Below are positions 7,596 through 11,418 of a DNA stretch of 64,000 nt, one piece after another (position 1 is the stretch's first letter; every line of letters starts with the position of its first letter). The position numbers and the translations under genes are program-made. Source of the DNA: Candidatus Allocopromorpha excrementavium (lineage in GTDB: Bacteria; Bacillota; Clostridia; Peptostreptococcales; Anaerovoracaceae). The stretch covers positions 235 to 64,234 of the forward strand of contig DVLX01000026.1 in assembly GCA_018715265.1 (NCBI GenBank), in the 5' to 3' direction. Under the pieces are notes generated by a model. It made no database searches. It was not told the DNA's origin and saw only the letters and a list, made by a program, of their open reading frames with translations.

Positions 7596-8015
7596 ATGAC
7601 GATACTTATAATAGATGCACAGGGCGGCGGTCTCGGCAGACAGCTCGTCCTTGCGATAAAACAGAATATACCTGATGCTCGGATCTTCGCAGTCGGCACC
7701 AACAGCGTGGCTACTACCGCCATGCTGAAGGCAGGCGCAGACGAAGCAGCAACGGGGGAAAATGCCGTCGCGGTAGGATGCCGCCGCGCAGATATCATAA
7801 CAGGACCTGTCGGAATAGTAATATCCGATTCCCTGTCCGGTGAAATAACGCCGAGGATTGCCCTCAGCGTATCGAGAAGTTCCGCGACCCGCATACTGAT
7901 CCCGTTCAACAACTGCGACAACATCATTGCCGGAGTTGCAGACCTGAGCATGGGAAAACTTATCCAAAACGCCATAAGCGAAATCAAAAAACTCACAGAA
8001 TCACGCGATAAATAA
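7596..8015 (+). CDS. DUF3842-like small protein (glycine-rich IDAQGGGLG motif)
   Basis: MTILIIDAQGGGLGRQLV N-terminus resembles the DUF3842 family as I recall it. ATG at 7596 lies 8 nt after AAGGA. It sits directly upstream of larB. Confidence 0.55.
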   Translation: MTILIIDAQGGGLGRQLVLAIKQNIPDARIFAVGTNSVATTAMLKAGADEAATGENAVAVGCRRADIITGPVGIVISDSLSGEITPRIALSVSRSSATRILIPFNNCDNIIAGVADLSMGKLIQNAISEIKKLTESRDK

Positions 8016-8038
8016 CGCAATAAATAAAAGGGGACAAC

Positions 8039-8794
8039 ATGAAAAGTGAAGTAAAACATATTCTCGAAGCCGTCAGAGACGGCGACATGTCAATAGATGA
8101 CGCTCTTTTGAAATTAAAAACAAAACCTTACGAAGACATTGGATTTGCAAAAACAGATCTTCACCGTAAAGTTCAGCAGGGAATACCTGAAGTGATATAC
8201 GGCGCAGGCAAAACAGCCCGGCAGATCATCGGTATCATGAATACCATGAAAGAAAACGGCCAGGAAAGAATCCTGATAACACGCCTTTCAAAGGAAGCCG
8301 CCGAGATCATAGGCAATTCACATGAGCTTTCCTACTACGAAACAGCGCGGATCGGATTTTCCGGCGATTTTCCGGCTCCCGACGGTATAGGAAATATCGT
8401 CGTCGCAACAGGCGGCACCAGCGATATCCCTGTAGCAGAAGAAGCTGTGCTGACCGCGGAAGCCCTCGGAAACAATGTAGTCAGACTGTACGATGTGGGC
8501 GTTGCCGGCATACATCGCCTCCTTTCACATAAAGAGGATGTTATGCAGGCAAGCGTGATAATCGCTGTCGCCGGTATGGAGGGAGCGCTTGCCACCGTCA
8601 TAGGAGGACTTGCCGACTGTCCGGTCATTGCAGTACCTACGAGCATAGGATACGGAGCCTCCTTCAACGGGCTGTCGGCTCTTTTATCCATGCTCAACTC
8701 CTGCGCGGGCGGAGTCTCCGTAGTCAACATCGACAACGGATTCGGCGCCGGCTATCTCGCCAGTATGATAAATCACATGGAGGCAAAGAAATGA
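8039..8794 (+). CDS. larB: Nickel-pincer cofactor biosynthesis protein LarB (NaAD carboxylase/hydrolase, AIR-carboxylase fold)
   Basis: About 250 aa. N-terminal helical part (DDALLKLKTKPYEDIGFAKTDLHR...GIPEVIYGAGKT) and a PurE-like C-terminal half (IVVATGGTSDIPVAEEA ... AVAGMEGALATVIGG). Confidence 0.85.
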   Translation: MKSEVKHILEAVRDGDMSIDDALLKLKTKPYEDIGFAKTDLHRKVQQGIPEVIYGAGKTARQIIGIMNTMKENGQERILITRLSKEAAEIIGNSHELSYYETARIGFSGDFPAPDGIGNIVVATGGTSDIPVAEEAVLTAEALGNNVVRLYDVGVAGIHRLLSHKEDVMQASVIIAVAGMEGALATVIGGLADCPVIAVPTSIGYGASFNGLSALLSMLNSCAGGVSVVNIDNGFGAGYLASMINHMEAKK

Positions 8795-11418
8795 AAATAC
8801 TTTACCTTGACTGCGGAATGGGAGCGGCGGGTGATATGCTGACCGCCGCTCTTTTGGAACTTCTTCCCGATCCGGACAGTTTCATAGATAAACTAAATTC
8901 TATCGGTATCCCAGGAGCACGTTTCGCCAGAGAGTCTTCGATAAAATGCGGTATCACCGGCACACACATGTCCGTCACAGTAAACGGAACTGAAGAGGAT
9001 GAATCAATAACAGGAAATAATCCTTCCGCCCACGGACACGTCACAGACCGGCACGACCATGATGCGGAACGGCACGAACACCACCACGGAAGAAACGTTT
9101 CCGATATAGAGCATATAATCTCAAAGCTCGATATGCCCGAAACTGCAAAGGCGGACGCTATGTCCGTATACCGTATCATATCCGATGCGGAAAGCAAGGT
9201 CCACGGCGTTCCCGTCACCGATATACATTTCCACGAAGTAGGCACGCTGGACGCCATAGCGGACATAACCGCAGTTTCCCTGCTCATGAACGAGATCGCA
9301 CCGGACGAAACGGTTATTTCTCCGATCCACGTCGGAAGCGGTCATGTAAATTGTGCTCACGGCACGGTTCCTGTCCCTGCCCCTGCCACAGCTCTCATAT
9401 TGAAGAACATCCCCGCATACGGAGGCAGTATCGAGGGAGAACTCTGCACCCCTACCGGCGCAGCACTGCTGAAACATTTCGCTGATCGCTTCGGCAGTAT
9501 GCCTCCGATGAAAACTTCGGCCATCGGATACGGCATGGGGAAAAAAGACTTTCCGCAGGCGAACTGTCTGCGTGCAATGCTGGGCGAAACAGCAGAAACA
9601 GGATCTGTGAAAAATCACAGCGCTGACAGCGATGATACCGTTCTCGAACTGTCCTGCAATGTGGATGATATGACGGCGGAGGCCGTCAGCTTTGCCATGG
9701 ACCGACTCTTTGACGGCGGTGCTCTGGAAGTCTACACAGCTCCGATAGGTATGAAAAAATCACGCCCCGGCACACTGATACGAGTAATGTGCCGCGAAAG
9801 CGAACGAGAAAATATTATCAGGCTGCTGTTCAAACATACAACTACCATAGGCGTAAGAGAAACCGTGACCAGAAGACACATTCTCGACAGAAAAATCGAA
9901 TCCATAGCGACTCCTTACGGCGAAGTGCACCGCAAGATCTCGCACGGGTACGGCGTTTCCCGCATGAAATACGAATACGACGATCTTTCCCGTATCGCAA
10001 AAGAAAACGATCTGTCTCTTGCCGATACAACAAGGCTGGTAGAAAGATACGCCCCCGAGGAGGAAAAGGACATCAGGCCGCAAAAAGCATCCACCGGCTC
10101 AGGGTCTTCGGATACCCCGGCTGATCAGGAACTGTCCGAGACAGAACAAACAGAGCTTGCAGAGAAAAAACAGCGCCTGGAAAAATATCTAAAAAATCTG
10201 GAAAGCGTGGCCGTCGCCTTTTCATCAGGAGTCGATTCCACCTTCCTGCTGAAGACAGCTCACGATGTGCTGGGCGAAAAAGCTGCCGCAGTAACTGCAT
10301 TTTCACCTTCGTTTCCATCAAGAGAATTTGAAGAAGCAAGAACTTTCTGCGAAAAAGAAGGAATACGTCATCTCATCGTTGAAGCAGATGTGCTGTCCAA
10401 CGAAGATTTTGTACGCAGCCCCGAAAACAGATGCTACATATGCAAGCACGATCTTATGTCCAAAATCATAGCTGCCGCTGAAGAAAGCGGCTTTTCATAC
10501 GTTGCCGAGGGGTCCAATATGGATGATCTGGGGGACTACCGTCCCGGACTTGCCGCAATATCGGAACTTGATGTCAAAAGCCCCTTAAAAGAAGCAGGGT
10601 TGACAAAAAAAGAAATACGCATTCTCTCAAAGGAAACAGGACTTTCCACATGGGACAAGCCATCTTTTGCCTGCCTCGTTTCCCGCATACCTTACGGAGA
10701 GAGGATCACAAATGAAAAACTGGAAATGATAGAGAAAGCCGAACAGGCTCTGCTGGATCTGGGACTTACGCAGGTGCGCGTACGCATACACGGAGACCCG
10801 CAGCAAGGCTTCATCGCAAGGATCGAAACCGAGCCTTCAGATTTCGATAAAATAATTTCGCCGGGAATCTCCGAGCACATTTCTCAGTATTTAAAAAGTC
10901 TCGGTTTTCTGTACGTTACCCTCGATTTCGGCGGCTATCAGGCGGGAAGCATGAATTTAAACATAAAAAAAGATATTGAAATAAAAATATTCGACACCCT
11001 GCCTGAGTCTGCCTCCAATATCCGCAAAGACGTCTTTATACGGGAACAGAGCTTTTCAGAAGAGTTCGATGATATCGACAAAACAGCAACGCATCTCGTA
11101 GCTTTCCAAAACGGAATCCCTGCAGCAACATGCAGGATATTTGAGGATAACTCCGATCTGCCAGGCGGAGTTTCTGACGATCTGACATTTATTTTAGGCA
11201 GACTGGCCGTGAGAAAAGAATACCGAGGCAAAGGCCTCGGCGCAGATATCATGAAAAAAGCTGAGGAAACCGCTGCATCAAAAGGAGCCAAGACACTGAA
11301 ACTTCATGCGCAGTTACAGGCAAAACCATTCTACGAAAAACTCGGCTACAAACCCTTCGGCGAAATGGACCGCGAGGAAAATACTCCTCACATCTGGATG
11401 CAGAAAACTCTGGTATAG
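8791..11418 (+). CDS. Triple-domain fusion: LarC (nickel insertion) + LarE (PP-loop ATP-dependent sulfur transferase) + GNAT acetyltransferase
   Basis: One uninterrupted 875-codon ORF with three parts.
- aa 1-~425: DUF111/LarC-like ([16 protein letters not shown]), with a His-rich tract [20 protein letters not shown].
- aa ~455-730: LarE-like ([15 protein letters not shown] PP-loop, CYIC, [11 protein letters not shown]).
- aa ~730-875: GNAT ([16 protein letters not shown]).
The ATG overlaps the larB stop (ATGA), and GGAGG lies 7 nt upstream. Confidence 0.8.
   Translation: [875 protein letters not shown]

Follow-up and report, generated by a model that had tools for sequence, protein, structure and literature searches.

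Nickel-pincer nucleotide (NPN) is a cofactor described from Lactobacillus plantarum, in which the biosynthetic genes larB, larC and larE are separate and clustered with the lactate racemase gene larA (larABC1C2E). In that organism, larC is divided by a C1/C2 frameshift, LarE relies on a single sacrificial Cys, and a larMNQO transporter is present. In contrast, the LarE of Thermotoga maritima has a CXXC-C triad that holds a [4Fe-4S] cluster, making the enzyme catalytic rather than sacrificial, and the majority of LarE homologues are of this type (PMC9283937). Approximately 15% of surveyed genomes contain larB, larC and larE and no larA (PMC11796402), and hundreds of prokaryotes fall into this LarA-less class (PMC13524815). 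NPN biology is widening, with second and third client folds reported in 2025-26. Clients other than LarA include NphT, which has an aldo-keto reductase (AKR) fold (PMC13524815), and an ornithine cyclodeaminase dependent on nickel-pincer adenine dinucleotide (NPAD) (Desguin 2025, as outlined in PMC13524815). What NPN is used for in the many LarA-less organisms that synthesise it is a major question in the field, to which the locus described below gives no answer. This locus is an operon of three plus-strand open reading frames (ORFs), DUF3842, larB and larC::larE::GNAT, on a 64-kb stretch of DNA from Candidatus Allocopromorpha excrementavium (contig DVLX01000026.1; the whole stretch is called the window).

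Taken together, the evidence makes it likely that this is a genuine NPN-biosynthesis operon in which the GNAT domain is incidental and the DUF3842 protein handles nickel or NPN, with the client enzyme encoded outside the window and an adjacent AKR/LysR gene pair inserted independently. Orphan status, LarC-LarE fusion and AKR neighbours of lar genes have all been documented elsewhere, and the GNAT domain is idiosyncratic. The partnership with DUF3842 is the most general and least explained feature of the locus.

All three biosynthetic activities of the L. plantarum cluster are recognized in the window by curated equivalog hidden Markov models for LarB, LarC1 plus LarC2, and LarE (Table 1). LarC1 (TIGR00299) scored 209.4 bits against a cutoff of 90 and LarC2 (NF052512) 139 bits against a cutoff of 50, and PF01969 spans amino acids (aa) 4-412 of the LarC domain (E 1.5e-134). 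The His-rich tract of LarC and the PP-loop of LarE are also shared with L. plantarum, although the tract is different or shorter in the two closest relatives of the fused protein (P0002 and P0003, 76% and 66% identical). Unlike the L. plantarum genes, larC lies in a single frame and is fused to larE, neither larA nor larMNQO is present, and a GNAT domain and a DUF3842 lead gene have been added. The PP-loop of the LarE domain reads SSGVDS (aa 478-483), one conservative change from SGGxDS. Its Cys triad consists of C548-Y-I-C551 and C628, the last in the motif PSFACLVSR. Because this is the CXXC-C motif as defined for T. maritima (PMC9283937), the LarE domain is assigned from its sequence to the catalytic [4Fe-4S]-dependent type, and the triad and PP-loop together predict that an external sulfur donor is needed. 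It differs from T. maritima LarE in being the middle domain of a three-domain protein.

The first-pass annotation, which a model had made from the letters and their translated reading frames, proposed three tightly packed co-directional genes in which the NPN module is compressed into LarB and one LarC::LarE polypeptide, with an extra GNAT domain and a DUF3842 partner. Coordinates, strands and domain models bear this out, as LarC, LarE and GNAT models all scored above their curated cutoffs on the 875-aa protein. The His-rich tract and the Ser/Thr/Glu linker that it had described are both present, and so is the ATGA (8791-8794) in which the larB stop codon overlaps the ATG of the third gene. 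The DUF3842-larB spacer is 23 nt long and contains a GGGGA Shine-Dalgarno sequence. The DUF3842 ORF is open from 7587, and homologue alignment together with an AGGA ribosome-binding site favours the ATG at 7596 as its start.

By analogy with characterised homologues, the larB product would catalyse the first step of NPN synthesis as a carboxylase/hydrolase of nicotinic acid adenine dinucleotide (NaAD), forming the mononucleotide of pyridinium-3,5-biscarboxylic acid (P2CMN). The LarE domain would then convert both carboxylates to thiocarboxylates, using ATP and an external sulfur donor via its cluster, to form the bisthiocarboxylic acid P2TMN. The LarC domain is predicted to be a CTP-dependent nickel insertase that would transfer nickel from the His-rich tract into P2TMN to form NPN. 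Fusion of LarC and LarE would place these last two steps on one polypeptide, favouring hand-over of P2TMN.

The first-pass annotation had contrasted the fused architecture with the separate genes of L. plantarum. The GNAT part is found in one species-level lineage only; LarC::LarE fusions are common in several phyla. A homologue search with the 875-aa protein returned 2,155 LarC/LarE clusters. Among the best 120, which were examined, about 30 cover approximately 80-83% of the query, corresponding to LarC plus LarE, and come from Fibromonadaceae/Fibrobacteria, Zoogloeaceae and Clostridia; JGI already labels such fusions 'TIGR00299 family/TIGR00268 family'. The LarC::LarE fusion is thus, as judged from these sequences, a recurrent solution across several phyla, although a literature search found no biochemical study of any such fusion. 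Annotated examples from Fibromonadaceae, Zoogloeaceae and Oscillospiraceae metagenome-assembled genomes (MAGs) (P0002-P0025, P0078, P0105 and others) have the same LarC-linker-LarE order at 38-76% identity over about 83% of the query; none carries a C-terminal GNAT. The nearest of these lie in the same DUF3842-larB-larCE operon downstream of ilvD: the loci of the two closest relatives (L001, 76%; L002, 66%) keep ilvD-DUF3842-larB-larCE and have neither GNAT, fused or adjacent, nor the AKR/LysR pair. Other LarC fusions were also seen, including LarC with a class-I S-adenosylmethionine methyltransferase (about 600-630 aa) in several clusters, LarC with a LarB-like AIRC domain (P0114) and LarC with PF07804 (P0075). 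The entries with LarC fusions other than LarC::LarE also comprise P0028, P0030, P0032, P0034, P0035, P0044, P0045 and P0048.

The DUF3842 assignment was confirmed by a full-length match of the 139-aa protein to PF12953 (159 bits, cutoff 28.5; positions 2-130 of the 130 in the profile). The family numbers more than 4,000 homologues at E <= 1e-5, and an exhaustive profile search found 1,479 clusters (50% identity). Almost without exception the members stand alone, with a length of about 135-145 aa, and no informative domain fusion emerged. The window protein shares 60-77% identity with homologues from Anaerovoracaceae, Lachnospiraceae and Oscillospiraceae. The one paper that a literature search turned up for DUF3842 deals with an unrelated subject.

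The genomic company of DUF3842 was surveyed in 528 relatives, one genome per species, and the best 80 loci were analysed. By tblastn, 31 of these contain LarC, 26 LarB and 25 LarE, nearly always on the same strand and 0.3-2 kb further downstream; lar genes immediately follow DUF3842 in 31 of the 80 species-level loci. At least 3 kb of downstream sequence was available for 67 informative loci. Thirty of these have lar genes, 15 have only Nik-like or FecCD-type ABC importers, and five have only a pair of small membrane proteins. In all, lar genes and/or Nik-, FecCD-, CbiM- or energy-coupling factor (ECF)-type importers follow DUF3842 in about 75% of the informative loci, in line with the co-occurrence that the first-pass annotation had suggested looking for. 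In several loci (L028, L034, L050 and L064) the genes for the importer are embedded among the lar genes, which makes them probable nickel importers. DUF3842 is among the most conserved genes of these clusters and heads operons of lar and nickel-importer genes across Clostridia, including abundant gut species.

The nickel accessory and uptake systems of lar operons and their like (L. plantarum LarMNQO, NikABCDE and CbiMNQO/NikMNQO) offer the closest comparison. In other species DUF3842 directly precedes NikABC-like, FecCD-type and CbiM-PDGLE importers as well as lar genes, as would be expected of an accessory gene in a nickel pathway; the window differs in having no importer next to the operon. 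The DUF3842 protein is soluble, shows homology to no known metallochaperone (HypA/B, UreE/G, SlyD) and lacks a His-rich motif.

AlphaFold2 predicted a confident small alpha/beta, Rossmann-like fold for the DUF3842 protein (pLDDT 83.7, pTM 0.83). Its invariant residues include D7, Q9, G10-G12, G14, T35, N36, K45, T53-G-E-N56, C62, R63, D66, D78, E83, R99, P103, C107 and N109. In the model most invariant residues, those of the Gly-rich beta1-alpha1 loop among them, are placed where the strands end C-terminally, which is the usual ligand crown. The predicted crown is acidic and polar, and the loop appears to be of a phosphate-binding type. Foldseek searches against the PDB gave only weak matches to generic nucleotide-binding folds at TM 0.45-0.5 (UbiX, the FtsZ N-domain and SDR/MDH) and no specific family, and hhalign found no remote homology to LarB or LarE. 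The first 29 residues of DUF3842 and of LarC (7596-7682 and 8791-8877; MTILIIDAQGGGLGRQLVLAIKQNIPDAR on the DUF3842 side) resemble each other weakly, at 34% identity. As the hhalign probability is 5%, this is probably an analogous beta1-loop-helix motif and was not counted as evidence.

These features suggest that DUF3842 is probably a nickel- or NPN-handling factor. More speculatively, it may act as an escort that supplies nickel to the lar pathway, or that handles its phosphorylated pyridinium intermediate or NPN itself. Two sets of observations argue the other way. By BLAST, 17 of the 67 informative loci have neither lar genes nor a transporter downstream, although a Pfam scan recovered a CbiM-PDGLE fusion, a FecCD permease and an ECF S-component in three of these. 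In addition, no His of DUF3842 is invariant and just two Cys are, one of which, C62, is placed off the ligand crown by the predicted topology, so that no nickel site stands out. If DUF3842 could be assigned to nickel delivery, to sulfur or intermediate handling, or to the carriage of the cofactor, a missing part of the pathway in organisms with [4Fe-4S]-type LarE would be supplied, and heterologous NPN production could also be improved. Through its association with lar genes and nickel importers, this domain of unknown function becomes a component of the pathway that can be tested.

In about 24 species-level loci, DUF3842 is separated from larB/larE by genes for a conserved pair of small membrane proteins (for example L023:10674-11430, L031:10757-11513, L049:10904-11634 and L006:2543-3228). 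One is about 140 aa long and contains 'LLWGGSxLLAFEHxWHGE', and the other is about 105 aa long and starts with 'MTLLTTVFAA...'. Neither matched Pfam or NCBIfam, and tblastn found no homologue in the window. The pair is a candidate for a novel nickel permease.

The NPN-consuming enzyme is probably encoded outside the window, a point that weakens any account of what the operon does physiologically. The domain scan covered essentially all ORFs of at least about 140 aa in the 64 kb. Among these there was no match to LarA (PF09861), as had been noted earlier, and hence no canonical lar locus with LarA, nor was there a match to ornithine cyclodeaminase/mu-crystallin (PF02423). The first-pass annotation had singled the module out as orphan; the LarA-less genomes already published show that this is not unusual, and non-LarA clients have since been found.

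The foremost alternative is that the module is not orphan genome-wide, and that a LarA-family racemase/epimerase or another known client encoded elsewhere on the chromosome uses the NPN. LarA homologues are frequently unlinked to larBCE, and the order ilvBNCD-DUF3842-larB-larCE is common to three related species, with an ilvD-DUF3842 gap of just 44 nt in L001. Since the operon is conserved downstream of ilvBNCD and genes for indolepyruvate:ferredoxin oxidoreductase (IOR), 2-oxoacid:ferredoxin oxidoreductase (OFOR) and a phenylacetate-CoA-ligase-like enzyme lie nearby, the client could, speculatively, be a 2-hydroxy-acid enzyme. Branched-chain or aromatic 2-hydroxy acids would be plausible substrates, given the ilv/leu, IOR and OFOR neighbourhood. 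However, LarA is absent from the window, and it did not recur in the 31 related DUF3842-lar loci (67 mid-sized ORFs; among the 25 families listed). The share of genomes that truly lack LarA (PMC11796402) also stands against it. With 64 kb plus flanks of +/-10 kb as the sequence covered, we regard an unlinked known client as a serious possibility, at somewhat less than an even chance. Analyses of lar genomic context have been published (PMC7583248).

A second alternative gives the GNAT domain a part in NPN synthesis, either by acetylating LarE, LarC or the client as a form of regulation, or by yielding a modified cofactor. The domain itself is real: over aa ~740-874, PF13673 scored 62 bits (cutoff 23.6) and PF00583 53 bits (cutoff 20.7), PF13508 was above its cutoff, and acetyl-CoA motif A (R/Q-x-x-G-x-G/A) is intact as 'RGKGLGA'. 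No NCBIfam equivalog reached its cutoff. Fused domains are classically read as a hint that their functions are linked, and this fusion is free of stop codons in dozens of assemblies. It is stably retained with its motifs intact in every strain, including a frameshifted variant that still makes LarE::GNAT as a single 403-aa product, a pattern that would fit a selected function as well as an incidental one. A test of selection by dN/dS on the GNAT domain among strains had no power, as six sequences differ by 0-4 nt.

Several observations stand against such coupling. GNAT is a promiscuous domain, and among the best 120 LarC/LarE clusters, GNAT Pfams occur in the query's own cluster only. A search with aa 725-875 returned 50 relatives, all of them free-standing, about 113-176 aa long and at most 55% identical, and no lar genes were found in three sampled contexts of the closest ones. 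Hence the co-occurrence of a GNAT fusion with lar genes that the first-pass annotation had proposed to survey is unsupported outside one species-level lineage, and no recurrent GNAT-lar linkage was found in the homologue clusters, the GNAT relatives or the three contexts. Across ten variants of the 875-aa protein, GNAT is also the most variable of the three domains (5.0% of sites, against 2.4% in LarC and 3.0% in LarE; the linker is the most variable segment at 8.1%), and one variant has an 8-aa loop deletion in it. We know of no acetylation step in NPN chemistry. On balance, a functional coupling appears unlikely.

The junction is consistent with an end-to-end joining of two complete proteins. 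The LarC::LarE relatives P0002 and P0003 end in '...GSMNMNIKRSTDTQSH' and '...GSMNPDTTK', and comparison with these and with the nearest free GNAT, P0270, indicates that the natural C-terminus of LarE is joined almost directly to the natural N-terminus of GNAT. The DNA at the junction (10960-10990) is A-rich (...aacataaaaaaagatattgaaataaaaata...) and includes an A7 run. An MN(x)NIK-like peptide is found in both partners, and this resemblance between the LarE C-terminus (MNLNIK) and the free GNAT N-terminus (MNIKIF) suggests a fusion mediated by microhomology. From these comparisons it is concluded that an acetyltransferase of about 140 aa, once free-standing, was recently fused to LarE in one species-level lineage. 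Since its free-standing relatives were not lar-linked in the three contexts sampled, the fusion is probably incidental. Speculatively, the domain is a passenger that most likely retains an acetyl-CoA-dependent activity, either unrelated to NPN synthesis or at best regulatory, and takes no part in the chemistry. A separate free-standing GNAT of 193 aa (23739-24320, minus strand; Acetyltransf_3, RimJ/RimL-like) lies 12 kb downstream and belongs to another subfamily.

It has also to be considered that DUF3842 itself binds NPN, as a minimal Rossmann-type client or carrier in LarA-less Clostridia. Its place at the head of lar clusters, tightly spaced and on the same strand, with no recurrent LarA, would fit this, as would its very strong conservation, suggestive of a precise ligand site, and a Rossmann-like fold with a Gly-rich beta1 loop and weak matches to FMN-, NAD(P)- and GTP-binding domains. 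There is also a precedent in the re-use of NAD(P)-type folds for nickel-pincer mononucleotide (NPMN) (PMC13524815). The residues expected of a binding site are less encouraging: the window protein has FNNCDN where most homologues have FNHCDN, leaving no invariant His, and the sole invariant Lys, K45, is at the end of helix 2, off the predicted crown. Unlike known client families, DUF3842 is uniform in size and sequence, with no substrate-specific diversification, and its 139 aa leave scant room for a substrate site. Moreover, in about one-third of the loci DUF3842 is paired with Ni/Co importers while lar genes are missing from the neighbourhood, which favours nickel supply over cofactor use. 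We therefore find NPN binding by DUF3842 improbable.

A broader proposal is that nickel-pincer biology in LarA-less Firmicutes has DUF3842 as a core component that had gone unrecognised, acting as a minimal Rossmann-type carrier or client of NPN or its thiocarboxylated precursor, or as a new kind of cytoplasmic nickel-delivery factor that joins nickel importers to LarC. It is put forward tentatively and with low expectation. If true, LarC::LarE::GNAT would be one variant of a DUF3842-dependent pathway, and the membrane-protein pair of other species would be a dedicated nickel permease.

The AKR gene upstream of the operon is a further candidate client. AKRs of family PF00248 have been recorded beside LarA-less larBCE in 427 cases, among them NphT, which binds NPMN covalently through a thioamide tether at K200, with H144 as a nickel ligand, and whose pocket has lost room for AMP (PMC13524815). 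The signature by which NPMN-dependent AKRs were discovered, a PF00248 gene by larB, larC or larE with no larA within 20 ORFs (PMC13524815; PDB 9YEB), is shared by the window, where the AKR gene is two genes upstream of larB, with no LarA in the window, and is present in all strains. Furthermore, 26% of lar-adjacent AKRs have neither the His nor the Lys and 40% have the His only (PMC13524815), so that non-covalent binders are conceivable. If this AKR were an NphT-like nickel-pincer enzyme, the module would not be orphan.

However, the AKR matches the DkgA-type enzymes 4MHB and 1VP5 over its full length (E ~1e-106), and among NCBIfam models DkgA fits it best. It keeps the catalytic tetrad (D44, Y49, K74 and H107), and so is kept the C-terminal NADP-binding motif 'IPKSVHKDRMEQN' (IPKS...R...N). 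This motif holds the 2'-phospho-AMP part of NADPH, the portion of the pocket that is lost in NphT-type enzymes. At the presumed positions of NphT H144 and K200 the AKR has F137 and G184, although these were located by position from the catalytic tetrad and not by alignment, which tempers the point. The gene is paired divergently with its own LysR regulator, and the pair, present in all strains, looks like an independent insertion because both genes are absent from the syntenic lar loci L001 and L002. The AKR is thus probably a canonical NADPH-type DkgA-like bystander and not the client, a role we consider very improbable. The first-pass annotation had counted the AKRs as mere neighbourhood chemistry; it overlooked that, by the 2026 criterion, adjacency to LarA-less larBCE makes this one a candidate client.

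Two other AKRs deserve mention. A second AKR in the window is fused to a 2x[4Fe-4S] ferredoxin-like domain (48317-49429, plus strand, 370 aa) and lies 37 kb away, unlinked to the lar operon. In an Erysipelotrichaceae MAG (L047, 2617-4963 and 8523-8912), genes for an AKR (39% identical to that of the window) and a LysR protein (43%) are found a few kb upstream of DUF3842, which there precedes a FecCD-type importer and has no lar genes after it; the likeness to the AKR-LysR-DUF3842 order of the window may be coincidental.

The third gene was proposed from the outset to be one ORF of 875 codons, and the same ORF was found on dozens of independent assemblies. Its product belongs to a 51-member cluster at 90% identity, with full-length members on dozens of contigs from NCBI, ENA, Logan and JGI; two members are named by NCBI as Anaerovoracaceae MAG proteins. 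An identical LarB protein occurs on 266 contigs, and 481 blocks of the collection have an index entry for LarB. On the 22 longest of the contigs read, from independent samples, the gene order is the same throughout: ilvBNCD, AKR (minus), LysR, DUF3842, larB, larCE::GNAT, an 86-aa gene (minus), Band7 (minus), acetoacetate decarboxylase (minus) and sortase (minus). Of the seven distinct places shown among these contigs, five carry the ORF at its full 875 aa. In another it is shortened to 867 aa by the loss of 8 residues from a GNAT loop, and in the last a frameshift in the LarC-LarE linker gives products of 466 and 403 aa. The frameshifted MAG (L091:6753-9379, GCA_047015585.1; protein P0123) is of the same species, and either a real variant or a sequencing error is possible. 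That the ORF is an assembly or sequencing artefact merging separate genes, as this split MAG and the A7 run of the LarE-GNAT junction might suggest, is rejected as having almost no likelihood, since the same 875-aa product recurs in assemblies from many samples and cohorts, LarC::LarE fusions occur in many other lineages, and the frameshifted MAG itself keeps LarE::GNAT fused.

Table 1. Coordinates of the operon, its domains and signals, and neighbouring genes in the window.
Feature	Position	Strand	Basis and remarks
Aldo-keto reductase (AKR), DkgA-like	5577-6428	-	283 aa; PF00248 E 1e-48
LysR-family regulator	6640-7512	+	PF00126 and PF03466; divergent from AKR, directly upstream of DUF3842
Promoter-like site, TGGAAA-17-TATACT with extended TG	7529-7557	+	Consensus scan only; upstream of DUF3842
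DUF3842 gene	7596-8015	+	139 aa; first gene of operon; PF12953 E 1e-46
larB	8039-8794	+	251 aa; NF033503 LarB equivalog 282.5 bits (cutoff 175); PF00731 (PurE-like AIRC) 59.9 bits
larC::larE::GNAT, single 875-codon ORF	8791-11418	+	Domain models; overlaps larB via ATGA
LarC domain (LarC1 and LarC2 in one frame)	8791-10050	+	aa 1-420
His-rich tract in LarC	9031-9090	+	aa 81-100; read from translation
Ser/Thr/Glu-rich linker, LarC to LarE	10051-10161	+	aa 421-457, ~37 aa; no domain match
LarE domain, PP-loop sulfur insertase	10162-10974	+	aa 458-728; TIGR00268 320 bits (cutoff 150), aa 458-722
GNAT acetyltransferase domain and stop codon	10993-11418	+	aa 735-875; PF13673 E 7e-17, PF00583, PF13508
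Bidirectional terminator-like hairpin	11493-11520	.	12-bp stem, 7 GC pairs; consensus match only; closes operon
Acetoacetate-decarboxylase-family gene	13331-14176	-	Fermentation-type block
Sortase; ACT-domain protein	within 13331-23000	-	Fermentation-type block
Phenylacetate-CoA-ligase-like enzyme	15667-17061	-	Fermentation-type block
Indolepyruvate:ferredoxin oxidoreductase, large subunit	17659-19431	-	Fermentation-type block
Four-subunit 2-oxoacid:ferredoxin oxidoreductase	19838-22993	-	Fermentation-type block

The promoter-like site is fittingly placed between the LysR stop codon and the DUF3842 start, although promoter-like sites in the region are in total no more numerous than in shuffled sequences. 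No Rfam match at the gathering threshold, and hence no riboswitch or other known RNA, was found upstream of DUF3842 in the window and 12 related loci. The terminator-like hairpin lies between the stop codon of larC::larE::GNAT and a convergent gene of 94 aa (11530-11814, minus strand). The product of this gene has weak matches to HicB/ParD-like antitoxins and a lysine/glutamate-rich N-terminus, and the gene is followed by one for an SPFH/Band-7 membrane protein (11825-12856, minus strand); the two are kept together beside larCE in relatives (L002) and in all strains. Further downstream is a minus-strand block of the amino-acid-fermentation type (13331-23000).

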